From NCBI GenBank assembly GCA_964442745.1, contig CAYUAI010000008.1:22337-86336 (forward strand): a stretch of 64,000 bases of DNA, in the 5' to 3' direction. The notes beneath the pieces are model-generated. The model saw only the letters and a program-made list of their open reading frames with translations. It was not told the DNA's origin and did no database searches. Positions 3,583-54,402 of the stretch are shown here, piece after piece. This DNA comes from an uncultured Chromatiales bacterium (lineage in GTDB: Bacteria > Pseudomonadota > Gammaproteobacteria > S012-40). Position numbers and translations under genes: made by a program. Position 1 is the first letter of the stretch. Each line of letters opens with the position of its first letter.

Positions 3583-4043
3583 GTTGCCATCGGTAAAAAA
3601 TTTATGGAGATAGGCCTTTGCTTTATCAATAACATTTTCTTCGAATCTTGGTGGTGCTGACGGTGGTAGCGGGCGAACCGATTGTGGTACAGGTCGAGCG
3701 GTAGCTTGCTGATGAGTTGGTGCCGGTTGTTTAACCTCCGTGGCGATGTTACCGGTTCAACGTTAACAGGTTCAGCTGGCTCTGGAACATCAGTTGGAGT
3801 TATTGCTGCCACCCAATCGACAGGTGATTCAGCACCTTTTTCCCAACGTTCGTCTTTTAAGGTGAATACGAGACGTTCTAGTTTTTGTAACTGCTGTCCC
3901 AGATCTTTAACTTTTCCTGAAAGCGTAATAATCGCACCTAAACCATACCCTATCAGACCGCCAAAAATAAATCCCAAAGCACCCGCCATAAAGCCGCCTA
4001 AAAGGCCCACTACAATGGCCAACACTGTCCCAATAGTTGTCAT
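3552..4043 (-). pseudogene. N-terminal fragment of the DUF2339 gene (TM helix + coiled coil + Pro/Glu-rich linker), separated from the body by an apparent frameshift near 3740-3775
   Basis: ORF starts MTTIGTVLAIVVGLLGG…(Gly-rich TM)…LGQQLQKLERLVFTLKDE…ITPTDVPEPAEPVNVEPVT and then turns into low-complexity nonsense. The out-of-frame continuation matches the upstream Pro-rich extension of the 1276..3582 ORF. Together they rebuild the canonical DUF2339 architecture. Confidence 0.5.
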
Positions 4044-4257
4044 ATCCCATCCCTCTAATTAACCATCATTTTTTTCTTTCTTTAAAAAAAATTTTAAATT
4101 CAAATATGTTGTTAGCCAACTTTCCCCCCGGCCAATGCAGGTGACGTTTTAAAATAAAATCATACAACATGGGATTATAAGAAACAGTCTCTTCAAAAAG
4201 AGCCTTCAATTCATTGCTGACTGACTACAGCAGTTGCTATTTTCCACGGCGTTTCAG

Positions 4258-4443
4258 TCATTTTATTTCCAGCTCGCGTTTACTGGCGATGCTGCGTGGA
4301 TGACTACCTCCCTGATAAACCAGAATCCGGGGCTTGCATCCACAAAAATATTTTGCGCCTTGCAAATTGTTATGTTGCAACAGACGCCGCTCCATGTCAT
4401 TGGTAATGCCGGTGTACAAGCTATCATCCGTGCACAGAATCAA
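4258..4443 (-). CDS. GIY-YIG nuclease-superfamily protein (UPF0213/YhbQ-like)
   Basis: …LILCTDDSLYTGITNDMERRLLQHNNLQGAKY… matches the YhbQ core [31 protein letters not shown]. Only a TTG start is available and the N-terminal GIY element is weak, so the gene may be 5'-truncated. Confidence 0.55.
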   Translation of the reverse strand: MILCTDDSLYTGITNDMERRLLQHNNLQGAKYFCGCKPRILVYQGGSHPRSIASKRELEIK

Positions 4444-4842
4444 ATGCTGATGAAAGTGTATATGGTAATTTTCAGGAACAACTGTCTCGTATACTAAATA
4501 AAGAATAGCTGATTATTTTAACGTGGGTTATTGCGGCCTCAAATATAGAATCTGGAATAGATATCGGTGTTCGATTTGGGAGAACACCTTTGACTTTGAA
4601 GTCGATGATATGATTAACAGTACACTATCACACTTTAAGTGTATATGGCGCTAACTTAACAGGTTTGGCTGATTGTCCAGCTAACGAACTCTTTGATTCA
4701 CATGTCAAGGTATCGTCTTTTGATGAAGAAGAGGATGATATCAAGACGTTGGGGAAGATTTCAGCTATTAAGTACATGCCGGAGAAAACGGTTAAAAGGG
4801 TGTGCGGCGGAGCAAAGTCGATTGTTCCAACACCATCGGTTA

Positions 4843-5949
4843 TTAGTCTGTTTTAAGTTGGTCTGTGGCAGCTGTGGTTAGTCCATCGTCAATCCAGCGA
4901 TCGACAACTGCTTTATAAGCGGTTATGAATTCACTGCGCCCGGAAAGTTTGGGGTCGATTAAAAACCCATACCCCGTATTTAATGCCGCACTCATCTCTT
5001 GAGCCGTTAGCTCCGCGCAAAAAACACGAATAAAGTCCGTTAAATCGACAATGGCTAAATCAAAATTAGCGGCGGCGATAAAATCAAGCAGATGCTTAGG
5101 CGTAGACAGTTCTGGGTCACTACGAATACCTGAAGCAATTAACGTATATTTATCTAAGTGTCCACGGTTCATTTTCTCTCTAAGATCAGGGATTCTATTT
5201 TTCCAATCATCCCGCACAGTCACTTCATAGGCGTGGGTTAATCGACCATCCAGAAACTCTTCAATATCACCACAAGTATTATCGAACTTATCAGACGCAT
5301 GTGGATGATGCGTCATAATTTCCGCCGCTATTTTTTTTCGATGATGGAATAAAATGGCCGCCACTAAAAATTGCTGTACATGCCCCTCGGATGGAATCGC
5401 AGACAACTCCATAAACAACCCAACGGCTTTAGCATAGGTTAAATAATTCGCGGGCAATGCAGGCAATGCGGGCGGCACCCGGCGAGTTTGTGCAATAAAT
5501 AAACATAAATCATCCAGCAATTGCTTCCTTTGCTGCCGGTTTTTATCACGTATCCAAGCAATAAACTCACTAAAGCGAGGATCTTTCGACAAATCAAAAT
5601 TTCGGACATTACCCTTCCATCCCAAGTTTTCACCAAAGGCAGTAATATTCTTATGAAAAGTCACATGCCGCTGGGTCAATGCAGAGGCTAAGCGTTTATC
5701 GCCATATTTTCCTCGAACGCCAATGGGAATCGCCGTAAAATTCCATGTTTCATCCACCAATGAATAGCCCAGCAAAAAAAACGAGGCTAACCTAACACTA
5801 CCGCCATGTCCGGCAAAACGCTGCTGTATCTGCTCGCTTTGCTTAACAGGCAATTGATGGGCCGCTTCATTATTAATGCATCGATCCACTTCCGCCAATA
5901 ACCTATCGACGGCTTGCTCCACCTGCTGGTTTCGGCTAGCTTTTGCCAT
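4843..5949 (-). CDS. Putative type II restriction endonuclease (368-aa partner of the adjacent C5-MTase); family not recognised
   Basis: Co-directional ORF directly downstream of the m5C methyltransferase, overlapping it by 14 bp if the start is Met23 (MAKASRNQQ…). No recognisable housekeeping-enzyme motifs. Confidence 0.4.
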   Translation of the reverse strand: MAKASRNQQVEQAVDRLLAEVDRCINNEAAHQLPVKQSEQIQQRFAGHGGSVRLASFFLLGYSLVDETWNFTAIPIGVRGKYGDKRLASALTQRHVTFHKNITAFGENLGWKGNVRNFDLSKDPRFSEFIAWIRDKNRQQRKQLLDDLCLFIAQTRRVPPALPALPANYLTYAKAVGLFMELSAIPSEGHVQQFLVAAILFHHRKKIAAEIMTHHPHASDKFDNTCGDIEEFLDGRLTHAYEVTVRDDWKNRIPDLREKMNRGHLDKYTLIASGIRSDPELSTPKHLLDFIAAANFDLAIVDLTDFIRVFCAELTAQEMSAALNTGYGFLIDPKLSGRSEFITAYKAVVDRWIDDGLTTAATDQLKTD

Positions 5950-6991
5950 CACTCTGCCCTGCCATAAAAGAGTGGTCCACATCCAACAACTTATGGGCCT
6001 GTGGCTGATCATCAAGCTGTATCATTAGCGCTTCCCCAAGGCGCTGCGCAAGCAACGGAGGAACGGCGTCACCCACTTGTGTATACCTGGACGAACGACT
6101 TCCAAAAAATGCCATGTGGTTAGGAAATGTCTGGATGATCGCACACTCTTCCACCGATAATCGACGTGCGCCAGGCACGATACCTGTCCTCGCTTTGCCT
6201 CCTTGTTTTAAGTGTGCATGATACTTAGGCGCAATATTCTGGGTATCCACCCAATGCGTCTTATATCCCCCTGAGGACGCTAGTATGGTATGGCATGGCC
6301 CATGAGGATCAATCGGCCTACCGCCTCCGTTGTATATGAGACCGGCATAAGGACTTTTTCTCAAATCCGGGTTTTGGGCAAATTTCACTGGGGAATTAGG
6401 AGGGTCGCCAATCGGCACATTGGACAAGTAGTCAGAAGATTTAGGATGCGCGACATCCGTCAGTTCACCATGACTAGGAAATGGAAATAACAAAAACTTG
6501 GATTGACTGCCCAGAATGAACAAGCGACGCCGTTTTTGCGGTACACCATAATCAGCCGAATGCAATACCATCCAATTGAGCTTATAGCCTAGCTCACTTA
6601 GCCGAAAAAGAATGGAATCAAAATAAGGCCGTGCTTTTTTCATTATTAAACCCGGCACATTTTCCATGACAAAAGCTTCGGGTTTTACTTCGTGTAAACA
6701 TCGGATAAACTCAGGAATCATATCTCTTGCATCATGCTGGCCTTTGCGCAGACCACCGAGTGAAAATGGCTGACAAGGCGGTCCGCCGATAACCATATCA
6801 ACTTTGTTACGATAATTTTTAAAGCTGACACAACGAATATCTCTATTGATGTGCATACAATGAGCATGGTGGCTCGCATAACTCGTCATCGAGTCTTGAC
6901 TCACGTCAACGCATAGCTCAGGGACAATGCCCGCTAATTTCATACCCAGCGACAAGCCACCTGGACCACTGAACAAATCGATAGCCTTCAT
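5936..6991 (-). CDS. DNA (cytosine-5)-methyltransferase
   Basis: Canonical m5C-MTase motifs: motif I DLFSGPGG, motif IV GGPPCQPFS, motif VI ENVPGL, followed by a variable target-recognition region. Confidence 0.85.
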   Translation of the reverse strand: MKAIDLFSGPGGLSLGMKLAGIVPELCVDVSQDSMTSYASHHAHCMHINRDIRCVSFKNYRNKVDMVIGGPPCQPFSLGGLRKGQHDARDMIPEFIRCLHEVKPEAFVMENVPGLIMKKARPYFDSILFRLSELGYKLNWMVLHSADYGVPQKRRRLFILGSQSKFLLFPFPSHGELTDVAHPKSSDYLSNVPIGDPPNSPVKFAQNPDLRKSPYAGLIYNGGGRPIDPHGPCHTILASSGGYKTHWVDTQNIAPKYHAHLKQGGKARTGIVPGARRLSVEECAIIQTFPNHMAFFGSRSSRYTQVGDAVPPLLAQRLGEALMIQLDDQPQAHKLLDVDHSFMAGQSDGKS

Positions 6992-7031
6992 ACTTCGCTT
7001 TATTTACCGTGTGGTCAACCCAGGAAAATAC

Positions 7032-8123
7032 TTACTCACAATCAAACGCACTCTCGTAATTTTTTCCTAAAATATCACTCAACGCCTGCAACAGTGCAGC
7101 GCAATGCGGATTAGTACCCACCGTAATACGTAAAAACGACTTGATGCGTGACTGATGGAAATGACGCACAATAATGGCCCGTTGGCGCAGTTGCAGAGCA
7201 AGCGACTCAGCCTCCTCATGTTTATGACGAGCAAAAACAAAATTGGCCATGGAAGGCAAAACCTCAAAACCTAATTGCAGCAACCCGGCCACTAAGCTTT
7301 CTCGGCTCTGGATAATACGCTGTCGATTTTTTTCAAAAAAGGCCTGATCTTGCAGTGCAGCCACCGCCCCAACAATAGATAAACGACCTAAAGGATAAGA
7401 ATTAAAACTATTTTTAACCCGCTCCAATGCTTCAATAAGTGCCGCCTCACCGATGGCAAAACCCACCCGCAATCCAGCCAATGAGCGGGATTTAGAAAAC
7501 GTTTGAATCACCAGCAAATTTGGATATTGATTTACCAGAGCAATCGCCGATTCTCCACCAAAATCAATATAGGCCTCATCCACCACCACCACCGATTGCG
7601 TGTTACGCTCTAACAATGCTGAAATATTCGCCAACGTTAATAAACGACCAGTGGGGGCATTAGGATTAGCAAAAATAATTCCACCGTTAGCAACACCATA
7701 ATGATCTAACGCGATTTCGAATGTATTTGTGAGCGCCACCGTATTATATTGCACATCATATAATCGGCAGTATACCGGATAAAAACTGTAGCTAATATCA
7801 GGAAACAACAGCGGCTGTGGGTGTTTTAATAATGCCTGAAAGGTATGTGCCAATACCTCATCGGAACCATTGCCCACAAACACCTGTTTGGTCGCCACCC
7901 GATAATAATTGGCGATAGCATCTTTCAAAAGATCAGCGTTGGGATCAGGATACAAACGCAATGTATCACCCATGGTTTCTGCCTTTAAAGCCGCTAACAC
8001 GGCTGGTGAAATCCCATAAGGATTTTCATTGGTATTTAGCTTGATCAGATTAGCCAATTTAGGCTGCTCACCCGGCACATAAGGGGTGAGATCATGAACA
8101 ACAGAACTCCAAAAATGACTCAT
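7032..8123 (-). CDS. hisC: Histidinol-phosphate aminotransferase
   Basis: N-terminal LNTNENPYG signature and the class II aminotransferase fold. Size is right at 363 aa. Confidence 0.85.
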
Positions 8124-9228
8124 AATATATTTCCAATGACATCCACCGGTTGACCACTACGCTAAATCTTGCGCTGTTGATGGTTTTGATTTACCCTTTC
8201 CTAAGCAACCTATTCAGTCGTATTGCTTGATAGTCAACCTTACGCCGCTCATCTCAAATCCTCCTTCCAGCGACTTTGAAATCATTATAAACGCTGAGGC
8301 TGAGCGATATCAGTTTGTAAAGAATTTTTCAGTTTTGATGCGAGCTTTCTCTGTAACATAGGTGGTATAACATCAAGTCCTTCCCACAGCAACACCTGAC
8401 ATCAGCGACAATGGCCACGTTACCGGAGTCTTTGGAGCGAACAAAAAATACCCAGAAAAGCATAAAACTCACACAATAGATCAGTATATATAACACATTG
8501 ACTGGCACACCTAGAAGTGTAAAATAATTATGATAAAAAACAATAGCGCCCCATAATACACAGAAACACTGAGGCGACTAAACTTTAATAAATATAACAA
8601 TAATTTTACCACTGTTATTCCGGGAAAACACCACCCTCCAACCAATCTTTTGACAATAATTACCAACTAAAAAAATAAACACCCATTAAAGATTTGAGCA
8701 ATCGCCATGATTCATCGTGCACACGCTTGACTCATGCAATTTCGCGACAAACGACGAAATAACTTGGACATATGATACTCAATATATTGGTAATTTCCAC
8801 CCTAGAATAAGACACCAAAAATCTAATACTAGACGACTGCAACCTCAAACAAATTAACATAAGGCGATAACACTCATAGACTAAAAAAATTTACTTTTAT
8901 AAAAATCACAAAACAACTTGATGTAAAATATACGCGTTGCAAATATTTTTCGACATAAAAATGTGCTTTACCCCATTTATGCTCAGTACGATCATAAAGT
9001 GAAATTTTTCACGCCAAAATTTAGATTAGATTTGGCCGTGCTAAGTATAACAACTGCATGGAGGCAGGCGTCAAATAATACAAGAACCGATTGAGTCAAG
9101 GAACGATTTAATTACCCATGTGGACGACACAACATCGTTAAATGATTTGTCGCGAATATACCTACATATTACTCGCTGTTTAAACTTGATCACATTAATA
9201 TATTGGTATTCGATGAGGTGGGGCCAAC

Positions 9229-12200
9229 ATGAATCGTATAAAAAATCAAAATATGACTATATCAAACCTGAAGTACAAAGTAATTCAATATTGGCTGAAT
9301 ATTTTCATTTGCATTTTAATTTTATTAAGCCAGCTAATTTTCGGGCAAGCATTCGCCGAGACAATATATGTGGACTCAGAAGCGAACCAGAATATGCGCC
9401 CGTTTAACAAACAAACGCTCAATGCTCAGGCCATCTTTGATCACGAGGGTATTGCTGACAACTGCCTAACCTGCCATTTCCCCAACAGCACAACCGCCAA
9501 AAAATTTAAAACAGCTACCCATACAGCTACCACCGATATTTGCGAAGATTGCCATTCCGTTTTATCCTGGCAGCCAGTTAAACGCTTCGATCACGATCAA
9601 GCATTAGGCCAATGCATCGATTGTCATGAGGGTAAAATTGCCCCCGGGAAAACAGCCAACCATATCGCCAGCAATAATGCATGTGGAACTTGCCATTCCA
9701 CGTTTACCTTCTTACCCATTAAACAAATCGATCACACCAGTGTCGTTGGCACATGTACTAATTGTCATGATGGAAATATTGCCAAAACCAAATCACCCAC
9801 TCACATTGAGACCAGTGATGCGTGTCAGTTATGCCATAATAGCCTCTCATGGTTGGCGGGCATTACCTTAGACCACTCTCAAGTTTCAGGCACATGTGCT
9901 AGCTGCCATAATAGCAGCTACGCCGCTGGCAAACATCCTTGGCATATCGACTCATCGGATGCCTGCGGCACCTGCCATGACACAACCCAGTGGCGCCCCG
10001 TTAGCCGTGTCGATCACAACGAAATAATTGGGACCTGTCGTGAATGCCATAATGGTAGATTCGCCATGGGCAAATCCGTGGGGCACGTATTATCCAGCAA
10101 TGTGTGCGAAGCTTGCCATAGCACGACAGCTTGGCGGCCTGTCACACGAGTAGAGCACAGTGAAGTCAAAGGTACCTGCAATGTTTGCCACGATGGCAGC
10201 AGTGCAATCGGCAAGCCTGTCGACCATTTACCCACCACAGATGAATGTAACATCTGCCACCAAACCACATCTTGGCAGCAAACACTTGGATTTATTCATC
10301 CGGGCATTAGCAATAACTGTGTCAGTTGCCATGATGGTAACACCCTTGCCGGTAAAAATAATACTCACATCACCACGACCGCCGCCTGCGAGTCTTGCCA
10401 TACCCCGGCAGCCTGGACAACCATTACCGCCGTTGATCATAGCCAGGGGACTGGCGATTGTTTTGATTGTCATAATGCAACAACCGCGACCGGTCAATCA
10501 GCCACTCACATTAAAACATCAAACCGCTGCGTCTCTTGCCATACCTCTGCCAGCTGGATACCGGCAACGACGATTGACCACAACGAAGTCATCGGTCGCT
10601 GCCTGGATTGCCATCATACAACCATCGCTTCTCAGGCGAAAAACCACATACCTATTCAAAACACACCCTGTGATGGATGTCATATCAATACCGCCTGGGT
10701 ACCAGTGGCTACCATGAACCATGATGTCGTCAGCACACCCTGTATTGATTGCCATGATGCGACCATCGGACCCGGCAAGTCAGCGGCCCATCCTCCCAGC
10801 TCAAATCTGTGCGAAGCTTGCCATGGGGTAACCGCTTGGCTGCCGATCCCAATCTTCGATCACACAGAAACCACCGGACTTTGCCAAGATTGTCATGCCA
10901 CCGGTATCGCTCCCGGCAAACTCAATAACCATCTACCTACCGATGAGCAATGTGACGATTGTCATGATCCCAGTGGATGGACGATAATTGTGTTTAATCA
11001 TAACAATCTCTCAGCATCTTGCATTTCATGTCATAATGATAACAACCTCCCAGGCAAACCAGCCACACACCTCTTGTCTTCTGATGCATGTAGCGCCTGC
11101 CATACCCCAAGTACTTGGGCACTGATTGCCACCCTCGATCACGACGAAGTATTAGGTGAGTGCCAAGACTGCCACAATGGTAGCATTGCTGTTAGCAAGT
11201 CAAACATTCATATTCCTACTTCGGACAAATGTAGTGCTTGCCATATCCCACTTGACTGGCAGCGCATTAATTTCATCGATCATACTGAAGTTTTTGCAGC
11301 TTGTGTTGAATGCCATAATGGGAAAACAACCCTTGGCAAAGGTAATAGTCATATAACTACCTCCGGTATTTGCGAAGCTTGCCATAACACATCTGCCTGG
11401 GTGCCGGTAACAACCATGGATCACAATGAAGTTTTAATTGCCTGTAATGGTTGCCACAATAGAGGCCTTGGGCACATTGGAAGCACCGAGAGCTGTGGTT
11501 CTTGTCATACAACAGACCAATGGGTACCAGCCCCTCTTGTCGATCATAATGAGGTAAAGGGTACTTGTGACTCCTGCCATAATGGCATTGCTGCAGACAG
11601 CAAACCTGGCGCCCATATCGTCACCCGTGCCCCATGTGATGCTTGCCACACGCCTAATCAATGGGCGCCATTAGCCACAATGGATCATACCGGTATTTCA
11701 GCCGCCTGCATGAGTTGTCACGATGGATTCACCGCCACCGGCAAAAGCTTAAACCATATACCCACATCAGATAGTTGCCATAAATGCCATGACACTAAGG
11801 TATGGGTGCCAGCAATCAAAGTCGATCACCTAGAAGTCATTGGCGACTGCTCAAGCTGCCACAATAGCTCAGCGACTCACATACGAACCAGTAGCACCTG
11901 TCAAGCCTGTCATAATACCATCGCCTGGTCACCCATTCTAATGATTGACCACAATGAGGTGATTGGTCTATGCACCGATTGCCACACTAAATCTTTAGCT
12001 CATGCCAATACCTCAATTTTTTGTGAAGCCTGCCATACCAACCAGCGCTGGGTACCCGTGCTTACCATGGATCATAATGAAGCCTTTGGCGCTTGTGCTG
12101 ATTGCCATACCCCCTCAGCAAGCCACATCAATAGCACCAATATTTGTGAAGCTTGTCATACATCCACGGCCTGGGTCCCGGCAATTACCGTCGATCACAA

Positions 12201-12309
12201 CAACGTATTAGGCACCTGCTCACGCTGCCATCCTTTGCCCGCTGACCATGACCCCACCGATGGTGCCGAATGTAATGCGGCCGGGTGCCATAACATTACT
12301 GGCTGGTAG
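9229..12309 (+). CDS. Secreted giant multiheme c-type cytochrome with about 41 CxxCH heme-binding motifs in tandem doubled-CxxCH repeats
   Basis: GAGGTG Shine-Dalgarno about 9 nt upstream of ATG 9229. Sec-type signal peptide (…LNIFICILILLSQLIFGQAFA|ET). 41 CxxCH motifs are spaced about every 26 aa with alternating half-repeats: CxxCH-x3-W-x-P-x5-DH-xEVxG and CxxCH-(D/N)G-x2-A-x-GK-x3-HI-xTS. The C-terminal site is an atypical CNAAGCH (CX4CH). Confidence 0.85.
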   Translation: MNRIKNQNMTISNLKYKVIQYWLNIFICILILLSQLIFGQAFAETIYVDSEANQNMRPFNKQTLNAQAIFDHEGIADNCLTCHFPNSTTAKKFKTATHTATTDICEDCHSVLSWQPVKRFDHDQALGQCIDCHEGKIAPGKTANHIASNNACGTCHSTFTFLPIKQIDHTSVVGTCTNCHDGNIAKTKSPTHIETSDACQLCHNSLSWLAGITLDHSQVSGTCASCHNSSYAAGKHPWHIDSSDACGTCHDTTQWRPVSRVDHNEIIGTCRECHNGRFAMGKSVGHVLSSNVCEACHSTTAWRPVTRVEHSEVKGTCNVCHDGSSAIGKPVDHLPTTDECNICHQTTSWQQTLGFIHPGISNNCVSCHDGNTLAGKNNTHITTTAACESCHTPAAWTTITAVDHSQGTGDCFDCHNATTATGQSATHIKTSNRCVSCHTSASWIPATTIDHNEVIGRCLDCHHTTIASQAKNHIPIQNTPCDGCHINTAWVPVATMNHDVVSTPCIDCHDATIGPGKSAAHPPSSNLCEACHGVTAWLPIPIFDHTETTGLCQDCHATGIAPGKLNNHLPTDEQCDDCHDPSGWTIIVFNHNNLSASCISCHNDNNLPGKPATHLLSSDACSACHTPSTWALIATLDHDEVLGECQDCHNGSIAVSKSNIHIPTSDKCSACHIPLDWQRINFIDHTEVFAACVECHNGKTTLGKGNSHITTSGICEACHNTSAWVPVTTMDHNEVLIACNGCHNRGLGHIGSTESCGSCHTTDQWVPAPLVDHNEVKGTCDSCHNGIAADSKPGAHIVTRAPCDACHTPNQWAPLATMDHTGISAACMSCHDGFTATGKSLNHIPTSDSCHKCHDTKVWVPAIKVDHLEVIGDCSSCHNSSATHIRTSSTCQACHNTIAWSPILMIDHNEVIGLCTDCHTKSLAHANTSIFCEACHTNQRWVPVLTMDHNEAFGACADCHTPSASHINSTNICEACHTSTAWVPAITVDHNNVLGTCSRCHPLPADHDPTDGAECNAAGCHNITGW

Positions 12310-12321
12310 CTCACGTCCATC

Positions 12322-12357
12322 CCTAGGAGGCTATCCAAGCATGGGAAACCTCCTGGG
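12322..12357 (+). terminator. Imperfect hairpin immediately downstream of the cytochrome stop codon (weak terminator candidate)
   Basis: cctaggagg…(18-nt loop)…cctcctggg directly after TAG at 12307-12309. The downstream tract is only weakly U-rich. Confidence 0.25.
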
Positions 12358-12453
12358 TATTTACAAATGATAATACTTAGTGAATAATAATTTTCCTATT
12401 TCTAATGGTTTGATGCTGACAGAAATAAAGCCAAAAAGATAAGGAATACGTGG

Positions 12454-13125
12454 ATGATCAATTTATCAAAGGCCAAGATCGTTGATCTTAGCAAAAAAGC
12501 AGAAACCACTCTTGCAGAGAAAAATTTGACCAATGTAGAAGCCAGTGTCATTGTGGTGTTGGATGTATCAAAATCCATGCACCCGCTATATCACAGCGGT
12601 ATCATGCAAAATGTCATTGAACGTTTGTTGGCATTAGCAATTCATTTTGACGACGATCAAAAAATAGATGCCTATGTTTTTGGCACCACCGCTTGTGAAC
12701 TGGCTCCATTAACGATGAATACGGTCGAAGGTTACATTGAACGTGAAGTGATTGCAAAACACAAAATTAACCAAGCCACTAAATACGCCACCGCCATTGA
12801 ACTAATCCATAAAAAGTATCGTGATTGCCAACAACCGGTTTATGTCATATTTATTACCGATGGTGATAATTCCGATAAAACAGAAACTAAATCGAGGATG
12901 ATAGACATCTGCAAAGCACCCATCTTTTGGCAATTTGTGGGTATTGGCAAAGAAGAATTTAAATTCCTTAACCGATTAGACGATCTATCAGGTAGGGCCA
13001 TCGATAATGCCGGATTCATGCATGTCAACGACATTGATACCATCGCAGATGATATACTGTATGCTCAATTACTGGATGAATTTCCCAGTTGGCTTAACAT
13101 TGTCAAGCAACAAGGTATTATTTAA
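12454..13125 (+). CDS. vWA-domain protein with MIDAS motif (vWA-TerF-like type)
   Basis: VVLDVSKSM is a DxSxS MIDAS motif. Downstream are FITDGDNSD and other features of the Rossmann-like vWA fold. The N-terminus MINLSKAKIVDLSKK resembles the TerD-family leader. AAGGA RBS upstream. Confidence 0.6.
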   Translation: MINLSKAKIVDLSKKAETTLAEKNLTNVEASVIVVLDVSKSMHPLYHSGIMQNVIERLLALAIHFDDDQKIDAYVFGTTACELAPLTMNTVEGYIEREVIAKHKINQATKYATAIELIHKKYRDCQQPVYVIFITDGDNSDKTETKSRMIDICKAPIFWQFVGIGKEEFKFLNRLDDLSGRAIDNAGFMHVNDIDTIADDILYAQLLDEFPSWLNIVKQQGII

Positions 13126-13137
13126 TGAACTCATCGC

Positions 13138-14511
13138 TTACAAGTCGATCAATTGAATCGCTTCGTTGATACGCTCAACAGGCATCACTTGCAAACCTTC
13201 GATGGCTTTTCTTGGTGCATTGGACTTGGCTAAGATAGCACGTTTAAAACCATGCTTTGCGGCTTCACGGACGCGCTCTTCGCCATTCGGTACGGGGCGT
13301 ATTTCACCGGCCAAACCCACTTCGCCAAACACCACTAAATCATTACCGATCGGTTTATTACGAAAACTGGAAATGGTGGCTAACACCACCGCCAAATCGA
13401 CCGCTGTTTCTGATATTTTAACCCCCCCCACCACATTAATAAACACATCGTGATCATGCATGGCAATACCCGCATGACGGTGTAACACCGCCAGCAACAT
13501 GGATAACCGGTTATATTCGAGTCCCAAGGTAATACGCTTTGGCATCGCCCCATGGCTTTCATCCACCAAGGCCTGGATTTCCACTAACAAAGGTCGACTG
13601 CCTTCGCGGGTCACCATCACCACACTGCCCGGCACCGACTGCGAATGACGTGATAAGAAAATGGCCGAAGGATTGCTGACTTCTTTGAGCCCCGTATCAG
13701 TCATGGCAAAGACACCCAGTTCATTGACTTGCCCAAAACGGTTTTTCACCGCCCGAATCATCCGAAATCGGCTGCCAGCTTCCCCTTCAAAATAAAGCAC
13801 GGTATCCACCATATGTTCTAACACACGCGGCCCAGCAATGACCCCCTCTTTAGTGACGTGCCCGACTAAAAATAAAGCAATATTCGTTTTTTTGGCAAAC
13901 TGGACAAACTGTGCGGTACTTTCTCTTAGCTGCGCAACCGCCCCCGGCGCTGACTGCAACGCACTGGTAAAAATGGTTTGGATCGAGTCGATCACCATAA
14001 TTTGTGGTTGTTCTTGATAGGCGATGCTGATGATTTTCTCGACTTGCGTTTCCGCCAACAACTTTAGTGAAGTCTCCAGTAAATGCAATCGATCCGCACG
14101 AATACGCACTTGCTGTAACGATTCTTCCCCGGTCACATACAGCGTTTTAAATTGTTCGCTCATGGCAATCAAGCTTTGCAATAATAACGTCGATTTACCA
14201 ATACCCGGGTCCCCACCAATAAGGATCACTGAACCGGCCACTAAACCACCGCCCAATGCTCGATCAAGTTCACCGACACCGGTTAAAATCCGGCTCTCTG
14301 CGGTATTGGGCACCTCGGATAATAATTGCACGCCACTTTGGTGCTTCGCGCCGCCGGCGTAACCTTCAAACGAATGGGTGCGTCGATTTTCCTTACTGCG
14401 GTCGACGCTCTCGATCAACGTATTCCACGCCTTACAATCGGGACATTGGCCAACCCACTTCGCTGATTGCCCACCACATTCGGTGCAATTATAAATTATT
14501 TTCGTTTTCAT
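13138..14511 (-). CDS. radA: DNA repair protein RadA/Sms
   Basis: C4 zinc finger CTECGGQSAKWVGQCPDCKAWNT, Walker A GDPGIGKST, KNRFG motif and a Lon-like C-terminal domain. Start placed at MKTKIIYNCTECG, because the longer ORF overlaps alr by 107 bp. Confidence 0.9.
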   Translation of the reverse strand: MKTKIIYNCTECGGQSAKWVGQCPDCKAWNTLIESVDRSKENRRTHSFEGYAGGAKHQSGVQLLSEVPNTAESRILTGVGELDRALGGGLVAGSVILIGGDPGIGKSTLLLQSLIAMSEQFKTLYVTGEESLQQVRIRADRLHLLETSLKLLAETQVEKIISIAYQEQPQIMVIDSIQTIFTSALQSAPGAVAQLRESTAQFVQFAKKTNIALFLVGHVTKEGVIAGPRVLEHMVDTVLYFEGEAGSRFRMIRAVKNRFGQVNELGVFAMTDTGLKEVSNPSAIFLSRHSQSVPGSVVMVTREGSRPLLVEIQALVDESHGAMPKRITLGLEYNRLSMLLAVLHRHAGIAMHDHDVFINVVGGVKISETAVDLAVVLATISSFRNKPIGNDLVVFGEVGLAGEIRPVPNGEERVREAAKHGFKRAILAKSNAPRKAIEGLQVMPVERINEAIQLIDL

Positions 14512-15580
14512 GAATTGAAGTAAATTGTACACGCTGGGTGAGTTTACAGACGAGTTCATAAGCAATGGTATTGGCTCGATTAGCGATTTCTTCAACCGGC
14601 AAACCCTCCCCCCATAACGTCACCGGATCACCCACCTGAATCGGTGCCTCACCAATATCAACACAGGTCATATCCATGCTCACCCGTCCAATAATAGGAA
14701 AACGTTGCTGCCGAATTAACACCGGAGTACCGTTTGTTACCTGCCGGGGATATCCATCACCATAACCGATAGCAACCACGGCAATATGGGTGGTTCGGCC
14801 CGCTCGCCATGTCCCGCCGTATCCTAATAACTCACCCGACTTAATCTGATTGATGGCAATCACCCGACTCACCAATGTCATGACCGGTCTCAAGTCAAGT
14901 GAGCAACCATTCCCTCCATGAAAAGGACTAATCCCATACAGCATGATACCGGGCCTCACCCAATCAAAATGACTGCTGGGAAAACCCAAAATACCCGCTG
15001 AATTAGCTAAGCTCCTCGCTAAACCAAACGGCTGATATAAAGATGTAAATAATAAGATTTGTTGTTGGGTAGACGGATTAGCGGCCTCATCAGCACTGGC
15101 AAAATGCGACATCAGCACCACCTGCTTGGTATTGAGACAATCACTCACTCGGCGTAATGCCGACAAACTTACCGAATGGTCAATGCCAAGTCGATGCATG
15201 CCGGTATCAATTTTCAACCACACGACCACCGGCTTGGCTAATTTGGTTTTTTCAAACAGGCGGATTTGATCCAGATGATGAATGACGGTATCTAAGCGGT
15301 GCTGCTCAATTAATAACAGTTCCTCCGCTGATATAAAACCTTGCAATACTAAAATCCGGTCTTTGGTATTGACGTTTCGTAATGCAATAGCCTCTTCAAT
15401 GTTAGCCACCGCTAAGGCGTCCACCCCTTTTAATGCTTGTGCCACACGCACCATACCGTGCCCATACGCATTGGCTTTGATGACCGCGATAATTTTTGCT
15501 TGGCGCACATGTTGCCGCACACGCTGCAAATTATACTTCAATGCAGAAACGTCAATGCGCACCTGATTGGCGCTGATCAT
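14489..15580 (-). CDS. alr: Alanine racemase
   Basis: PLP-attachment motif AVIKANAYGHG. 363 aa. Sits downstream of dnaB as in Pseudomonas. Confidence 0.85.
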   Translation of the reverse strand: MISANQVRIDVSALKYNLQRVRQHVRQAKIIAVIKANAYGHGMVRVAQALKGVDALAVANIEEAIALRNVNTKDRILVLQGFISAEELLLIEQHRLDTVIHHLDQIRLFEKTKLAKPVVVWLKIDTGMHRLGIDHSVSLSALRRVSDCLNTKQVVLMSHFASADEAANPSTQQQILLFTSLYQPFGLARSLANSAGILGFPSSHFDWVRPGIMLYGISPFHGGNGCSLDLRPVMTLVSRVIAINQIKSGELLGYGGTWRAGRTTHIAVVAIGYGDGYPRQVTNGTPVLIRQQRFPIIGRVSMDMTCVDIGEAPIQVGDPVTLWGEGLPVEEIANRANTIAYELVCKLTQRVQFTSIHENENNL

Positions 15581-16980
15581 TCATGCCCTCCACCACCAAA
15601 GTCCGTCTGAATAAAATTCTCAAATCGGGTGTATTGCCCAAGAAAGGTTAAACGCGTGGTACCAATCGGTCCATTTCGCTGTTTGCCGATAATAATTTCA
15701 GCCGTGCCTTTATCTGGGCTGTCCGGATTATAAACTTCATCACGATAGATAAAAACAATCACATCCGCATCCTGCTCAATCGCCCCTGACTCACGTAAAT
15801 CTGACATCACTGGACGTTTATTCGGACGTTGTTCTAGGCCTCGATTTAACTGTGACAAAGCAACCACAGGTACTTCTAATTCTTTAGCCAAGGCTTTTAA
15901 AGAACGAGAAATCTCGGAAATTTCGGCAGCGCGATTGTCCCGCGCACCATGCACTTGCATTAATTGTAAATAATCGATAACAATCAATCCAAGTTTGCCT
16001 TGTTCCCGTGCTAAACGCCGTGCACGCGCACGTAATTCATTAGGCGTTAACGCTGGCGTATCATCAATAAATAGCGGTGCTTCCGCTAAAATACCGACAG
16101 CACTCGTCAAACGAGGCCAGTCATCGTCACTTAATTTTCCGGTACGAACTTTGTGCTGATCAATGCGGCCAATGGATGACATCATCCGCATGGCTAACTG
16201 ATCCCCCGGCATTTCCATGCTAAATACCGCCACCGGCAAACCCGCATAGACCGCCGCATGCTCCGCCATATTCATGGCAAAGGTGGTTTTACCCATGGAA
16301 GGACGGCCCGCCACAATCACGAGATCCGAGTGCTGTAAACCCGAGGTTTGTTCATCAAAGTCCGAGAATCCAGTCGGCACCCCGGTGATGGGATTGGCTT
16401 GTAGAAATAATGAATCAATCCGATCAACCGCCTTGGTTAATAAATCCTTGATACCAATAAAACCCTTCCGCCCACGAGAGCCTCTTTCTGCAATATTAAA
16501 TACTTGCTGTTCCGCCTTGTCCAATATTTCGGCACTAGAACGCCCGTCTGGATTAAATGCATCATCGGTAATGGTTGAGCCAACATTAATCAATTGGCGC
16601 AGTATGGATCGTTCTTTGACAATGCTCGCATAGGCTTTGATGTTAGCGGCCGTTGGAATATTCTTTGCCAATGCCCCGAGATAGGCTAAGCCACCGGCTT
16701 TTTCCAACGCTTTTACACTGTCTAGGCTTTCAGACAATGTAATAATATCGCAAGGTTTTCCTTCAGATACCAAAGCAACAATGGCGCGATATATCAAGCG
16801 ATGATCGTAACGATAAAAATCGTCTTCGGTAACGAGATCAGCGATCTGGTCCCAAGCATCATTATCTAACAGGAGACCACCGAGAATGGATTGCTCAGCT
16901 TCGACGGAATGGGGCGGAATTTTCAACTGATCCGCGTCAATATCATTTCCAGCGGGAAAAGGAAAGGCTAAATCTGGCAT
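15577..16980 (-). CDS. dnaB: Replicative DNA helicase DnaB
   Basis: Walker A GRPSMGKTTFAMN, DnaB N-terminal domain and C-terminal RecA-like domain. 467 aa. Confidence 0.9.
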   Translation of the reverse strand: MPDLAFPFPAGNDIDADQLKIPPHSVEAEQSILGGLLLDNDAWDQIADLVTEDDFYRYDHRLIYRAIVALVSEGKPCDIITLSESLDSVKALEKAGGLAYLGALAKNIPTAANIKAYASIVKERSILRQLINVGSTITDDAFNPDGRSSAEILDKAEQQVFNIAERGSRGRKGFIGIKDLLTKAVDRIDSLFLQANPITGVPTGFSDFDEQTSGLQHSDLVIVAGRPSMGKTTFAMNMAEHAAVYAGLPVAVFSMEMPGDQLAMRMMSSIGRIDQHKVRTGKLSDDDWPRLTSAVGILAEAPLFIDDTPALTPNELRARARRLAREQGKLGLIVIDYLQLMQVHGARDNRAAEISEISRSLKALAKELEVPVVALSQLNRGLEQRPNKRPVMSDLRESGAIEQDADVIVFIYRDEVYNPDSPDKGTAEIIIGKQRNGPIGTTRLTFLGQYTRFENFIQTDFGGGGHE

Positions 16981-17292
16981 ATGCCCCTCGCAACATCATG
17001 ACTTAATCGGGTGGCAGGATCCTGCCAAAAAGAAACTAAGGAATGAACAATCGGTCGATTCCTAAGAATAACAAAATCCTATTTATTGGAACGCTAGACG
17101 TCGCAAAGTGTTGCCACGCTCTTAATGCCGTTGGATTTTGAAAAATCAGGCAAAGTGAATGTATTATCCATTCAGTGCATACTCCTTAGAAGCGGCTTTA
17201 AAGCCACTTCTAAAGGAGTGATGAGGACGATGTGACACAATAACTCATTTTTCAATCAATCATTCATATGCCCATGGTGTCAACGTTTGATG

Positions 17293-17739
17293 TTATGCGG
17301 CGACCACTAGAATTTTCACCATGGATGTCACGTCGGCATGCAAGTTTAAAGAAATCTCGAACTCACCAAGATTGCGTAACGGTCCATCTGGCAATTGTAC
17401 TTCATGTTTTTTCACATGAACACCAGCAATAGAAATCGCTTCAGCAACGTCTCTCGCACCGATGGAGCCATACAGCTTGCCTTCATCACCCGCTTTGCCG
17501 GTAATTTCAATACTCAATTCACTGAGCTTACTGGCCCGTTCATTCGCTGCCGCTAACACACTGGCCGATTTCTTTTCTAGTTCGGCACGCTGCGCTTCAA
17601 ATCGCTCAATATTTTTTTTATTCGCCGGAATCGCGATGCCTTTAGGAATCAAAAAATTCCTTCCATAGCCGCCTTTGACATCCACCTTATCACCGATAGA
17701 ACCTAAGCTCTTTACTTTTTCTGTTAATATGACTTCCAT
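17293..17739 (-). CDS. rplI: 50S ribosomal protein L9
   Basis: [36 protein letters not shown] is near-identical to the canonical L9 N-terminus. Confidence 0.95.
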
Positions 17740-17806
17740 AAAATAACCTCATGCCAAAACTTGAATTTCGTAATTTAATAACCAACACTGGCGCAAAATA
17801 TAGGGC

Positions 17807-18727
17807 TTATGAATCCATCTTGTCGGGCTTAGCAAAATATCGACGATAATCCATCCAAGCATCTGAAATCGCAATCAGCGCTAATAAAACCATCATCGGC
17901 TTGGCAACAAAAAATAGCATGACATAAATAGCCACTAACCATGCTGCATTAGCATGGGTTTTTTCCACCCAATCATGGACCATAGCCAACCCGAATAAAC
18001 TGCAAGCCGTGATAACAACAAACGTAAGGTCGGAAAAAAGTTCACCCGGATGGCTAATAATCATGGCAAGCACGATGATGACTAGCGCGACAATAGCTAC
18101 CCGTCGATCCATTTTCAATGAAACAAATTCTTCACGAAACCCACCGGGATTGTATAATGCCGCTTGCCACCAACGCCCCAGAAACAGACTGCAAATTAAG
18201 CTAACAAACACAGCCCCAGCCACCATACCCGTCATGGAGGATGCAATCATCTCTAACATTAACTGAACATCATCAGGATCGGCAGACACCGTCGATTCTC
18301 GCAGGGTTTGTTGAAAAATATTAGCGAGCTGCTCCAGCCACCATGCCACAGGATCATTTAGCATCCCATGCACCACGATGGGAACAATGCAAGCCATGCC
18401 TGCTGCAATATAAATTGACCACGGTAAGTGCATCATTCGCCGCAGTACCACCGCTAACACCCACACGGGCATCCACACCATCACGACAAACAGCAGTGCG
18501 ATCGCCCCACTGCCTAATATCACATAGGCCAATACCGCCATCACCAGCGCCGCGATGAAGCTGATATACAGTCCATCATAAGCACCTTTACGCAAAGTAA
18601 CGAGGGCAATCACAGCGGCACTTAAATAACTTAACGGTGCCAAAATTAAAGACAATACCGCAAAAACCGTGGCCGCCATTGCCGCTTGTGCTCGACCACG
18701 CATAATGAAAGTGGCCATTGCTTTCAT
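17807..18727 (-). CDS. Conserved multi-pass membrane protein (DUF2232-like) between rpsR and rplI
   Basis: 306-aa hydrophobic ORF in the same position as P. aeruginosa PA4933 (rpsF-rpsR-PA4933-rplI). Confidence 0.6.
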   Translation of the reverse strand: MKAMATFIMRGRAQAAMAATVFAVLSLILAPLSYLSAAVIALVTLRKGAYDGLYISFIAALVMAVLAYVILGSGAIALLFVVMVWMPVWVLAVVLRRMMHLPWSIYIAAGMACIVPIVVHGMLNDPVAWWLEQLANIFQQTLRESTVSADPDDVQLMLEMIASSMTGMVAGAVFVSLICSLFLGRWWQAALYNPGGFREEFVSLKMDRRVAIVALVIIVLAMIISHPGELFSDLTFVVITACSLFGLAMVHDWVEKTHANAAWLVAIYVMLFFVAKPMMVLLALIAISDAWMDYRRYFAKPDKMDS

Positions 18728-18945
18728 CGTTACCCCACTTCAGTGAAATGACGCTAAGAGTTTATTTCGCTAGCAAGGTTGCCCGAGAGTAGCGATTATC
18801 GCTCGATCCAACTTGATCCGTGTATGCTTTCGATAGAATCAACTTGGGTCGTAGCGATCAGCCGGCTTTCGTACAGCCTCCTAGGGACTCAGCGTTTGTG
18901 ATTCGGTACCACCTTCACAACAAAACGTAAAGGCGATAAAATCCC

Positions 18946-19170
18946 TTAATGGGCGTCTGAATAAGGTAATAAGGAAATATATCTTGCACGTTTAATGGCC
19001 TCAGACAACTGACGCTGATATTTTGCACTGGTGCCGGTAATACGGCTTGGCACAATTTTCCCGCTTTCTGTAATATAGTTTCTCAATGTTGCCAAATCCA
19101 AATAATCAATTTGAACCACTCCATCTGCAGTAAATCGGCAAAACTTTCTACGTCGAAAATAACGTGACAT
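18946..19170 (-). CDS. rpsR: 30S ribosomal protein S18
   Basis: [18 protein letters not shown]…[16 protein letters not shown]…[11 protein letters not shown] is almost identical to E. coli S18. Confidence 0.95.
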
Positions 19171-19221
19171 TATTTATACTCCAAACTATCTATTATTTAA
19201 GGAATGTTGCACAGAGATGAT

Positions 19222-19578
19222 TTAGCGATCACCCAACGTCCCAGCCGGCGATTTAACGGGAGAGCCTATCACAATGGACTTCGCGTGAATCACTAATTGA
19301 TAGGTGTGCTTGCGAGACACAGCACGATTCAGAAAACCAATGACGCTTAATGGCGTACCCACTTGTACAGATTTCAAAATGGCAGCCAACTCGTCACCGC
19401 ATGCAATCGTTAATACTCGGCAATAAACCGCTCGTTTCAGTGTCACTTCTTCCTGCTCGGAACGGTGTTCTAACAAAAACCGACTGATCGGAATGCCCGC
19501 TGGACTAAAACGTATCTCTGGTAAACTATAGGCTGTTCCACTCAGCGCAATGCGATTATTATCCAGCACTTCTCTCAT
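19222..19578 (-). CDS. priB: Primosomal replication protein N (PriB)
   Basis: …[37 protein letters not shown]… aligns with E. coli PriB (NRLVLSGTV…[20 protein letters not shown]). The start is uncertain and overlaps the rpsF 3' end. Confidence 0.7.
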
Positions 19579-19945
19579 GACGGCCACTGGCTTCTGGCGC
19601 ACTCGGCCGTGGCGTCGCATCGGCTTCTTTTTCTTTCGATAATATTGATGACTCAGTAACCGCCGCCTTACAACGAATCACCATATTCCTCAGCACCGCA
19701 TCATTAAAACGAAAAGCGCTCGTGAGTTCATCTAACACCGCCTGAGAACATTCAATATTCATGAGAATATAGTGTGCTTTATGAATTTTATTGATCGGAT
19801 AAGCTAATTGGCGGCGGCCCCAATCTTCTAGACGATGCACTTGGCCACCATCCACGGTAATCGTAGCGCGGTATTTTTCTACCATGGCAGGGACTTGTTC
19901 ACTCTGGTCAGGGTGAACTAAAAATATAATTTCATAATGTCTCAT
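19559..19945 (-). CDS. rpsF: 30S ribosomal protein S6
   Basis: [25 protein letters not shown] is the canonical S6 N-terminus. Confidence 0.95.
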
Positions 19946-20126
19946 TTTGGCTCCCTATGGATAATAAAGTCGCCTCCCCTATCAACTGACAGAGTAAAGC
20001 AAGGAGAAACATATCTCCTCCTTAACATGGAGGAAAGCGGACTATTGTAGCGCCATCACGCGACGGTTGCAATGCGCATATATTCAAGCCGATTGAACAT
20101 TATTTTACCGCAAAACTATCCGCAGA

Positions 20127-54398: not shown

Positions 54399-54402
54399 GA
54401 CG

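Follow-up and report, generated by a model that had tools for sequence, protein, structure and literature searches.

A single gene for a giant multiheme cytochrome c was identified on the forward strand of a DNA stretch of 64,000 nucleotides (the 64-kb window) from an uncultured gammaproteobacterial host. The features of the locus are collected in Table 1. The reading frame, uninterrupted from ATG to stop, contains exactly 41 CxxCH motifs and one CX4CH motif (C1015-NAAG-CH), the same counts as in the initial annotation. From the Cys/His-rich composition of the protein itself (85 Cys, 87 His and only 10 Met) about 0.6 CxxCH motifs would be expected, against the 41 observed. The ATG at position 9229 is also the start codon of the ortholog found in a sister species; the second methionine codon (M9) is not conserved.

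Table 1. Coordinates of the features at the cytochrome locus (positions within the 64-kb window).
Feature	Position	Strand	Remarks
Upstream intergenic region	8124..9228	.	1.1 kb, AT-rich (33-38% GC); presumed promoter/regulatory region
Shine-Dalgarno-like GAGGTG	9215..9220	+	8 nt 5' of the ATG; direct reading of the sequence
Giant multiheme cytochrome c CDS	9229..12309	+	1026 aa and stop; 41 CxxCH and one CX4CH
Putative Sec signal peptide	9229..9357	+	residues 1-43, cleavage after AFA, no lipobox; sequence inspection
Non-repeat N-terminal linker	9358..9438	+	residues 44-70, short; pLDDT <50
Heme-repeat array	9439..12231	+	residues 71-1001; 41 half-repeats, two types alternating
C-terminal cap with 42nd, non-canonical heme motif	12232..12306	+	DH...EC-NAAG-CH...GW-COOH; kept in the ortholog
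vWA-TerF-like gene	12454..13125	+	223 aa, no signal peptide seen; Pfam PF10138, 1.5e-66

The cytochrome gene is flanked on one side by hisC (TIGR01141, above cut-off) and on the other by the vWA-TerF-like gene, which is followed by radA (TIGR00416, above cut-off). The gene had been described as an isolated insert between hisC and radA: both flanks were recovered, but the vWA-TerF-like gene intervenes and the locus is common to the sister species. A Pseudomonas-like genome, also proposed, does not fit the GC content of the window (44.5%) or its RNase R, whose nearest named relatives (Ca. Tenderia, Thiohalomonadaceae) are about 64% identical.

The ortholog locus has an upstream gap of comparable length, alignable at its two ends only. 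Promoter and terminator scans gave counts at the level of shuffled sequence, and an Rfam search of the upstream region gave no matches.

Judged by eye, the N-terminus of the protein has a charged n-region, followed by a hydrophobic core (about 20 aa) and the site AFA/E. The core and AFA/E are retained in the ortholog, and the lone Cys of the core, which has no lipobox context, is missing from it, in agreement with the Sec signal peptide without lipobox read from the sequence before. The N-terminus looks like a signal peptide, and export to the periplasm, which is needed for heme attachment, is predicted from it. The mature protein would be a single polypeptide of 983 residues with 42 motifs, 23.4 aa per heme, and 45 His beyond those of the heme motifs but just 8 Met. 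The calculated mass is about 105 kDa for the mature apoprotein and about 131 kDa for the predicted holoprotein with 42 covalent hemes.

The two half-repeat types of the array are DHxxVxGxCxxCH (type A) and xHIxTSxxCxxCH (type B). The spacing of the motifs alternates between 24 and 23 aa and defines a super-repeat of 47 aa (141 nt) with two hemes, which replaces the period of about 26 aa and the super-repeat of about 52 aa given previously. Near the C-terminus, four of the A-to-B spacings are cut to 17 aa, the A-type loops being 6 aa shorter. The conserved upstream His proposed as the second ligand for bis-His ligation was found at position -7 relative to the first Cys in 40 of the 41 motifs and at -8 in the remaining one. 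Mean identity between the 47-aa units is 38% for protein and 50% for DNA. The array ends in the cap; a CX3-4CH motif near the C-terminus with a terminal aromatic residue is common to many full-length family members, and its presence indicates that the gene is full-length.

Integrity and conservation of the gene

The identical 1026-aa protein was found on contigs from three independent runs (SRR6439372, SRR6439371 and SRR32234002). Tandem Repeats Finder (TRF) detected no DNA tandem repeats in the gene, and the pairwise nucleotide identity of the repeat units ranges from 39 to 62%.

The ortholog lies at the same locus in the sister species (L091/L092), where nucleotide identity is roughly 84-88%. 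It is 82.6% identical, with a dN/dS of 0.157, and keeps all 41 CxxCH motifs and all 41 upstream His. Cys/His positions are 98.8% identical, versus 79.9% for the other residues, and within the repeat array the two proteins differ in length by one 6-aa loop indel only. A search for homologs in related taxa, suggested with the initial annotation, returned this ortholog and hundreds of proteobacterial relatives.

The possibility that the array was collapsed or expanded during assembly, or that the gene is a decaying pseudogene, was considered, as contigs end inside the gene in the metagenome assemblies GCA_006243105.1 and GCA_006243245.1; these breaks show that the gene is difficult for short-read assembly. 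This explanation is effectively refuted by the recovery of the same product in three independent assemblies, the divergence of the repeats at the DNA level together with the empty TRF result, the identical motif count and low dN/dS of the ortholog comparison, and the intact signal peptide and family-typical cap. The cytochrome gene is real, intact and selectively maintained.

Relation to the PCC3 giant cytochromes

Four Pfam families of c-type cytochromes matched the protein above their gathering cut-offs: PF14522 Cytochrome_C7, the top match (152 bits, cut-off 24.8, E-value 3.9e-45), PF14537 Cytochrom_c3_2 (79.1 bits, cut-off 25), PF09699 Paired_CXXCH_1 (73.3 bits, cut-off 20.6, E-value 1.2e-20) and Cytochrom_CIII. 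These matches and the multiple CxxCH motifs assign the protein to the multiheme cytochromes c, and the Cytochrome_C7 and Paired_CXXCH_1 matches bear out its earlier description as a secreted giant cytochrome c of doubled-CxxCH repeats. TIGR01905 (paired_CXXCH_1), recommended at that time as a check, scored 16.6 bits, below its cut-off of 25.2, although the corresponding Pfam model passes.

The best NCBIfam match was TIGR03508 (MtrA/DmsE decaheme), with an E-value of 8.6e-44 in 8 stretches and a score of 149.9 bits, below the cut-off of 192.2. Membership of the MtrA/DmsE family was rejected on this sub-cut-off score and on the presence of 42 motifs, not ten. TIGR04257 (Geobacter c7-type poly-heme) was not significant (E 0.14).

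Comparison with the giant cytochrome of the PCC3 cluster of Amphritea atlantica DSM 18887 gave 42% identity over 971 aa (747 bits), versus merely 23% (90 bits) for the cluster's periplasmic cytochrome. The A. atlantica giant cytochrome, for which we counted 64 motifs and 63 have been reported, likewise shows the 23/24 spacing and has His at -7 in 57 of 63 motifs; the periplasmic cytochrome has a 16-18-33 spacing and His at -7 in 1 of 21. The genes of this locus follow the published order: inner-membrane protein, 21-heme cytochrome, giant cytochrome, porin.

On sequence grounds, the cytochrome is clearly homologous, over its full length, to the giant 'extracellular' cytochrome of PCC3 (cyt-c_e), and it combines the very many heme motifs, low residue-per-heme ratio and repeats with a heme site each that characterise this family. 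It shares the 23/24-aa doubled-CxxCH repeat and the His at -7 with the PCC3 cyt-c_e of A. atlantica and of S. lithotrophicus ES-1 (Slit_1448; PMC5566968, PMC10734462), and a residue-per-heme ratio of about 23-25, a Thr/Ala/Ser/Gly-rich composition, the signal peptide and the CX3-4CH cap are also common to both. Unlike many members, it does not begin with 'FDHxxTGFxLxGxH', and with 42 hemes it is mid-sized within the family.

Proteins of this kind were described by He et al. (2017) as repeat-rich 'molecular wires' of low residue-per-heme ratio, with a median of 34 and a maximum of 63 hemes (PMC5566968). In published work, too, the 'extracellular' location of cyt-c_e is a predicted one (PMC5566968; PMC12442390), PCC3 has been described as 'functionally unverified' (PMC12442390), and cyt-c_e was undetected in S. 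lithotrophicus ES-1 proteomes.

Relatives with 32-135 motifs occur in hundreds of proteobacterial genomes. Matches labelled 'Kaarinaea lacus' are probably from a co-cultured proteobacterium, because Kaarinaea lacus is a cyanobacterium. At least 40 motifs are present in 75 of the best 80 genome loci, with a maximum of 133-135; cytochromes with 40 or more hemes, earlier called rare, are not so in this family. The kind of protein is already described; the gene adds a member from an uncultured gammaproteobacterium and no new category.

A locus apart from the PCC3 membrane genes

The initial annotation had reported no porin, ccm or other redox partner near the gene, and none was found in the 64-kb window; CcmH-like and Fer4/Pyr_redox genes were equally missing from it. 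With two PCC3 porin references, tblastn at E <= 1e-5 found nothing in the window; the same references match 69-70 of the 80 reference loci. No second CxxCH-rich ORF that could encode a ~21-heme periplasmic cytochrome was seen in the window, and the corresponding query re-matched the giant gene weakly. No match to the PCC3 inner-membrane protein (di-heme-b-like, about 300 aa, two WX3HX13H) was obtained by tblastn of the window; this protein and the porin are present in 53 of the 56 reference loci with adequate flanks. In comparison with a PCC3 cluster, the inner-membrane protein, the ~21-heme cytochrome and the porin are thus missing within 9 kb upstream and 52 kb downstream. The locus is atypical in that the gene lies apart from its usual PCC3 membrane partners, which leaves a conduit model without its membrane parts here.

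Copies without nearby partners were also found at four other loci (L006, L008, L010 and L013). The type of cap does not mark such copies: P0046 and P0058, with a similar cap, are in PCC3-like clusters. Homologs of the family elsewhere adjoin ccm genes and CcmH-like genes.

The vWA-TerF-like gene adjoins the 3' side of the cytochrome gene in both species (synteny in L091 and L092); it was not found beside the other family members examined, and a functional link between the two genes is putative. Insertion by a mobile element was rejected: no direct or inverted repeats flank the locus save one 14-nt chance pair, and the locus is common to the sister species. The presence of both genes at the same place in the sister species excludes a recent strain-specific insertion.

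Classical type II secretion system (T2SS) genes, gspC, gspD, gspE and gspF, are located at 45805..51775 of the same window. In Amphritea, T2SS E, F and K genes come immediately after the PCC3 cluster.

Proposed function and alternative roles

We propose, with a probability of about 75%, that the protein is a Sec-exported c-type cytochrome that acts as a wire of bis-His hemes in long-range electron transfer. The apoprotein would be exported by Sec, and the hemes would be attached in the periplasm by the cytochrome c maturation system of the cell. Each heme would have two His ligands, one from its own CxxCH motif and the other from among the 41 upstream His, and would be low-spin; this bis-His ligation is suggested by the excess of non-motif His over Met in the mature protein. 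The low number of residues per heme leaves almost no protein core, so that the polypeptide is expected to thread a single close-packed heme chain. By extrapolation from MtrA, such a chain may be roughly 30-40 nm long, and it would carry electrons, or hold them in store, between the cell envelope and a redox partner that is external or distant.

The location of the cytochrome and its redox partners are putative. Given that no PCC3 partners lie nearby, these would be encoded elsewhere in the genome, or the cytochrome would act alone; the T2SS encoded in the same window could export it.

The structure of the protein was predicted with AlphaFold2. The full-length model, from an alignment of 45 sequences, had a pLDDT of 58 and a pTM of 0.27, a low confidence, as expected when the cofactors of a heme-dense protein are left out, and its most confident stretch was a helix of residues 11-38. 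The model of a 188-aa fragment with 8 hemes, from 32 repeat-derived rows and likewise without cofactors, was also of low confidence (pLDDT 62). A Foldseek search of the PDB with both of these low-confidence models gave no meaningful match. Searching the PDB with the cytochrome by phmmer gave weak matches to MtrC only (PDB 4LM8 and others, E about 4e-7); OmcS, OmcE, OmcZ and GSU1996 in the PDB matched neither in sequence nor, as far as the low-confidence models can be compared, in fold. Because of this low confidence and the missing structural match, the geometry of a single linear chain was deduced from sequence density.

The proposed wire resembles MtrA/DmsE/MtoA and MtrC in the use of a bis-His heme chain as a trans-envelope electron wire. 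It is unlike MtrA/DmsE/MtoA in having 42 instead of 10 hemes, strictly periodic repeats and no MtrB-type porin nearby. In concept, the long one-dimensional chain of close-packed bis-His hemes is also that of the Geobacter GSU1996/GSU0592 type and of OmcS/OmcE/OmcZ; here, however, the length would come from one polypeptide, and not from triheme c7 domains or from polymerised hexa-/octaheme subunits.

A tentative alternative is that the protein serves as a spare outer module, a PCC3 cyt-c_e paralog docking onto a porin-periplasmic cytochrome complex (PCC3 or other) encoded elsewhere, so that extracellular wires would be exchangeable. Several copies per locus are frequent: three giant cytochromes are found in L007, three in L006, and two within one PCC3 cluster in L005. 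The MAG WH4.bin33 combines a copy lacking nearby partners (L013) with one beside a porin (L057). PCC3-type clusters are also present in samples that contain the organism or its sister species (L097 in SRR6439371, L005 in ERZ27251221), but their tetranucleotide correlation with the window is 0.72 and 0.86, respectively, compared with 0.96 for the true ortholog locus and a baseline of 0.89-0.94 for chunks of the window itself. Composition does not assign these two clusters to the host genome.

It is unlikely that the protein remains in the periplasm as a wire or capacitor, storing electrons or shuttling them across this compartment instead of forming an extracellular conduit. The Sec signal peptide without lipobox and the lack of an adjoining porin or dedicated secretion gene would fit such a role, and Hoover et al. 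discuss roles as a capacitor or as a wire across the periplasm for large heme counts (PMC10734462). The homology, however, is to the PCC3 component with a predicted extracellular location and not to its periplasmic counterpart, and the estimated 30-40 nm exceed the usual width of the periplasm (MtrA dimensions in PMC5566968).

For the partnerless copies as a group (the present gene and its ortholog, L006, L008, L010 and L013), one can imagine that the PCC3 wire module is put to a different functional use, although we think this quite improbable: a single-gene cytochrome of about 130 kDa and 30-40 nm, released by the general T2SS, would act as a free or surface-attached monomeric 'nanowire' with neither a porin nor an inner-membrane partner dedicated to it. 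If this were so, no simpler genetically encoded long-range electron conductor would be known, and the protein would offer a tractable way into the PCC3 family.

A heme-free Cys/His-rich repeat protein that binds metal, as a chaperone or for sequestration, would agree with the lack of a confident AlphaFold fold, but is made highly improbable by the strict C-x-x-C-H register of every Cys pair, the single additional conserved His that goes with each motif, the strong matches to the four cytochrome c Pfam families and the homologs that adjoin ccm and CcmH-like genes.

Giant PCC3-type cytochromes have a wide distribution that includes iron oxidisers, sulfur-oxidising symbionts (Thiodiazotropha, tubeworm symbionts), Woeseiaceae, Steroidobacteraceae and others; for none of them has a structure been solved or a function tested. 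The present gene is compact and full-length, its repeats are clean and an ortholog is available for comparison, so that it could be a convenient choice for expression and structural studies. As metagenomic relatives reach about 135 motifs, the apparent uniqueness of its 41 hemes vanishes, and the sole unusual feature of the gene is that it is encoded alone, away from its usual membrane partners. This separation from the PCC3 genes raises the modest question of whether the wires may be functional, or swappable, independently of the porin complex.

The cytochrome gene and its product

The cytochrome gene forms an uninterrupted ORF of 1026 codons, with the sequence GAGGTG located 8 nt upstream from its ATG. 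As the initial annotation had counted, the product has exactly 41 CxxCH motifs plus a single CX4CH (C1015NAAGCH), among 85 Cys, 87 His and 10 Met residues; the chance expectation from its own composition is 0.6 CxxCH. The spacing between motifs alternates between 24 and 23 residues, giving a super-repeat of 47 aa (141 nt) rather than the ~26/52-aa period first proposed. Weak DNA repeats within the gene, spaced at multiples of 141 nt, confirmed this period; a 17-aa spacing occurs four times near the C-terminus. Laid out in register, half-repeats A (DHxxVxGxCxxCH...GK) and B (xHIxTSxxCxxCH...W.P) alternate, and a His is found at position -7 from the first Cys in 40 of the 41 CxxCH motifs and at -8 in the remaining one. 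The heme motifs leave 45 other His residues for the 42 hemes; this number, with only 8 Met in the mature chain, would fit bis-His ligation.

Residues 1-43 resemble a Sec signal peptide with a cleavage site between AFA and E. The only Cys in its hydrophobic core lies outside any lipobox context, and the ortholog described below lacks it. Pfam matches above cut-off were Cytochrome_C7 (3.9e-45, 24 stretches), Cytochrom_c3_2, Paired_CXXCH_1 and Cytochrom_CIII. The best NCBIfam match, the DmsE/MtrA decaheme family, scored below cut-off (149.9 versus 192.2), as did TIGR01905, which had been suggested as a check. Motifs, signal peptide and Pfam matches uphold the interpretation as a secreted giant multiheme cytochrome.

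Four lines of evidence identify the gene as real. The same 1026-aa product, with the same neighbours, recurs on contigs of three sequencing runs, each of which was assembled independently. The fourteen regular 47-aa units have a mean identity of 38% in protein and 50% in DNA (maximum 62%), and Tandem Repeats Finder reported no DNA tandem repeats for the gene, which makes collapse or expansion during assembly implausible. An ortholog of 1030 aa occupies the same position in a sister organism (loci L091 and L092), where the order is restriction enzyme, methylase, hisC, a gap of ~1.2 kb, cytochrome and vWA, and the flanking genes are ~84-88% identical in DNA. The two orthologs (82.6% protein identity, dN/dS 0.157) share all 41 CxxCH motifs and all 41 upstream His residues, with 98.8% identity at Cys/His positions versus 79.9% elsewhere; the sole indel inside the repeat array, a 6-aa loop, turns a 17-residue spacing back to 23. 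An assembly artefact was rejected on these grounds. The contigs of two NCBI metagenome assemblies end inside the gene, which is thus hard to assemble, but not mis-assembled here.

Features of the window and of related loci
Feature	Position	Strand	Remark
Window, 390-aa gene	within 4843..6991	-	restriction-modification pair; weak precomputed RE_SacI_N match on Logan contig
Window, C5 cytosine methyltransferase	5936..6991	-	same pair; overlaps 390-aa gene
Window, cytochrome	9229..12309	+	ATG to stop, 1026 aa
Window, vWA-radA interval	13126..13138		lacks the L091 insertion
Window, gspF	45805..47019	-	
Window, gspE	47058..48599	-	
Window, gspD	48612..50705	-	secretin
Window, gspC	50792..51775	-	
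Window, 729-aa and 160-aa genes	52209..54885	-	adjoin gspC
L007, giant cytochromes	2279..15472		ENA ERZ925379 contig
L016, PCC3 cluster and T2SS-like genes	17452..23284		arrangement also in L011
L030, giant cytochrome	4220..13792		CAYFNG010000019.1
L091, four-gene insertion	10665..17351		807-aa phosphodiesterase/Exo_endo_phos protein, GT4 glycosyltransferase, 752-aa protein (function not assigned), VTT-domain protein
L096, M4/FTP protein	13782..16634		
L097, M4/FTP protein	7484..10324		

Relationship to the PCC3 'extracellular' cytochromes

The porin-cytochrome c cluster PCC3, defined by He et al. (2017; PMC5566968), has four components. Besides a porin, these are an inner-membrane protein, which is conserved, measures ~300 aa and contains two WX3HX13H motifs; a periplasmic multiheme cytochrome with a median of 21 hemes; and a second multiheme cytochrome termed 'extracellular', cyt-c_e, whose median is 34 hemes and which has 63 in Amphritea atlantica DSM 18887. 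The same authors described cyt-c_e as repetitive, rich in Thr/Ser/Ala/Gly and very low in residues per heme, and proposed a molecular-wire role (PMC5566968). The A. atlantica locus (L016) has this layout: an inner-membrane protein with both motifs, cytochromes of 528 aa (21 hemes) and 1584 aa (64 motifs), and an outer-membrane candidate of 739 aa, whose Pfam matches are to SPOR and TPR_6 only. In S. lithotrophicus ES-1, Slit_1446-1449 are arranged alike, from the inner-membrane protein through the periplasmic and then the extracellular cytochrome to the porin; no cyt-c_e was detected in proteomes of this strain.

The window protein is 42% identical over 971 aa (747 bits) to the A. atlantica giant cytochrome, with which it shares the 23/24 spacing and the His at -7 (57 of 63 motifs in A. 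atlantica). In contrast, it matches the A. atlantica periplasmic cytochrome weakly (23%, 90 bits), and that protein has a 16-18-33 spacing and almost no His at -7. Judged from these similarities and from the cluster order common to A. atlantica and ES-1, the window protein is a member of the PCC3 cyt-c_e family.

A search of 5.8 billion proteins gave 711 relatives at 26-42% identity; among the best 120, most have 650-1780 aa and 22-64 CxxCH. Exhaustive HMMER against 1.84 billion cluster representatives gave 417 clusters at E <= 1e-30 and 1966 at the looser E <= 1e-3, including two giants (P0244 and P0243), one of 3274 aa with 129 motifs and one of 3592 aa with 133. GTDB species representatives contain at least 589 encoding loci, in Amphritea, Steroidobacteraceae, Woeseiaceae, Thiodiazotropha, Sedimenticolaceae, Thiobacillus, Methylotenera and alphaproteobacterial MAGs. 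Motif counts of the giant gene in the best 80 of these range over 32-135, with a median of 44.5, and 75 of the 80 reach at least 40. The family thus abounds in cytochromes with 40 or more hemes, initially considered rare, and the window protein with its 42 ranks in the middle.

Locus L030, from an uncultured Sneathiellales MAG, carries a 3190-aa ORF with 135 heme motifs that runs off the contig end. Locus L007 has three giant cytochrome genes on one contig of 15 kb, with 27, 63 and at least 59 motifs respectively; given a 4-nt overlap, the first two may be parts of a single ~90-heme gene that a frameshift has broken. Proteins P0004 and P0059 are deposited as the cyanobacterium Kaarinaea lacus PCC 9237, one of them on a short 4.6-kb contig; their closest relatives are all proteobacterial, and they probably derive from a proteobacterial companion in a non-axenic culture.

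Proposed structure and export

The apocytochrome would be exported by Sec and its hemes attached by the maturation system of the cell. All 42 hemes would have bis-His ligation and be low-spin; the polypeptide, with 23.4 residues to each heme, would thread them into a single chain. Extrapolation from MtrA, with ten hemes in ~8-10 nm (quoted in PMC5566968), would give a length of ~30-40 nm, exceeding a typical periplasm. The expected mass rises from 105 kDa (apoprotein) to 131 kDa (holoprotein). AlphaFold2 models without hemes were of low confidence (pLDDT 58 full-length, 62 for an 8-heme fragment), showing short helices at each CxxCH and little else; Foldseek found no match for either in the PDB, and a PDB sequence search found only MtrC (~4e-7). 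Hence a linear-chain geometry can only be inferred. As far as the sequence shows, electrons might flow either way, inward from Fe(II), minerals or cathodes, or outward as discharge.

A classical type II secretion system (T2SS; gspC-D-E-F, 45805..51775, minus strand) lies 33 kb from the cytochrome gene, and in L016 the genes directly after the PCC3 cluster are T2SS-like E (MshEN domain), F and K. Both arrangements hint that such cytochromes may be T2SS cargo. In Shewanella, the T2SS exports MtrC and OmcA; by analogy, the T2SS of the window could export this cytochrome. Two genes next to gspC might encode secretion substrates or accessory proteins: one product, of 729 aa, has a Big_2 Ig-like domain, and the other, of 160 aa, matches no family.

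A locus apart from the PCC3 cluster

Upstream from the L016 cluster are a CcmH/CycH-like gene, an Fer4 + Pyr_redox oxidoreductase and an Ank/Sel1 repeat protein; the recurrence of this trio in loci L004, L005 and L096 suggests that the conserved PCC3 neighbourhood extends further. In the PCC3-like subgroup of L096 and L097, a ~950-aa Peptidase_M4 (thermolysin-like) + FTP protein directly downstream from the giant cytochrome takes the usual porin place.

Tblastn with the reference inner-membrane protein, porin, CcmH-like, Fer4/Pyr_redox and Ank/Sel1 proteins gave no match in the 64-kb window, and 39 of its other ORFs of at least 120 aa, annotated by Pfam, were housekeeping genes only, in agreement with the reported lack of porin, ccm or redox partners nearby. 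The locus is therefore not a PCC3 cluster. Of 56 reference loci whose flanks span at least 5 kb upstream and 4 kb downstream, 53 carry the inner-membrane protein together with the porin and three the porin only; none lacks both. Partner-less copies elsewhere are a minority (L006, L008 and L010; L013 and a few others with partial flanks) and have no neighbour in common. PCC3-like clusters occur in the same samples (L097 and L005); their tetranucleotide correlations with the window (0.72 and 0.86), versus 0.96 for the ortholog locus and 0.89-0.94 for the window's own chunks, do not tie them to this organism.

NCBIfam equivalogs confirmed hisC and radA as flanks. The description as an isolated insert holds as regards the missing partners, but no flanking repeats hinting at mobile insertion were found around the locus, and the position is the same in the sister species. 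The vWA-TerF-like gene downstream from the cytochrome is conserved only with the direct ortholog. The sister species carries four additional genes between vWA and radA, a sign of some plasticity in the region. The type II restriction-modification pair just beyond hisC is conserved there. The genome had been called Pseudomonas-like; the window has 44.5% GC, and its RNase R is 96% identical to one metagenomic protein and otherwise at most 69% to anything, the named relatives near 64% being Ca. Tenderia electrophaga and Thiohalomonadaceae, which identifies the host as an uncultured gammaproteobacterium and not a Pseudomonas-like one.

The family itself is already known: it has been described bioinformatically, and PCC3 is functionally unverified in the literature (PMC12442390). 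The window gene adds one member, which is unusual in a single respect, its location away from the other PCC3 genes.
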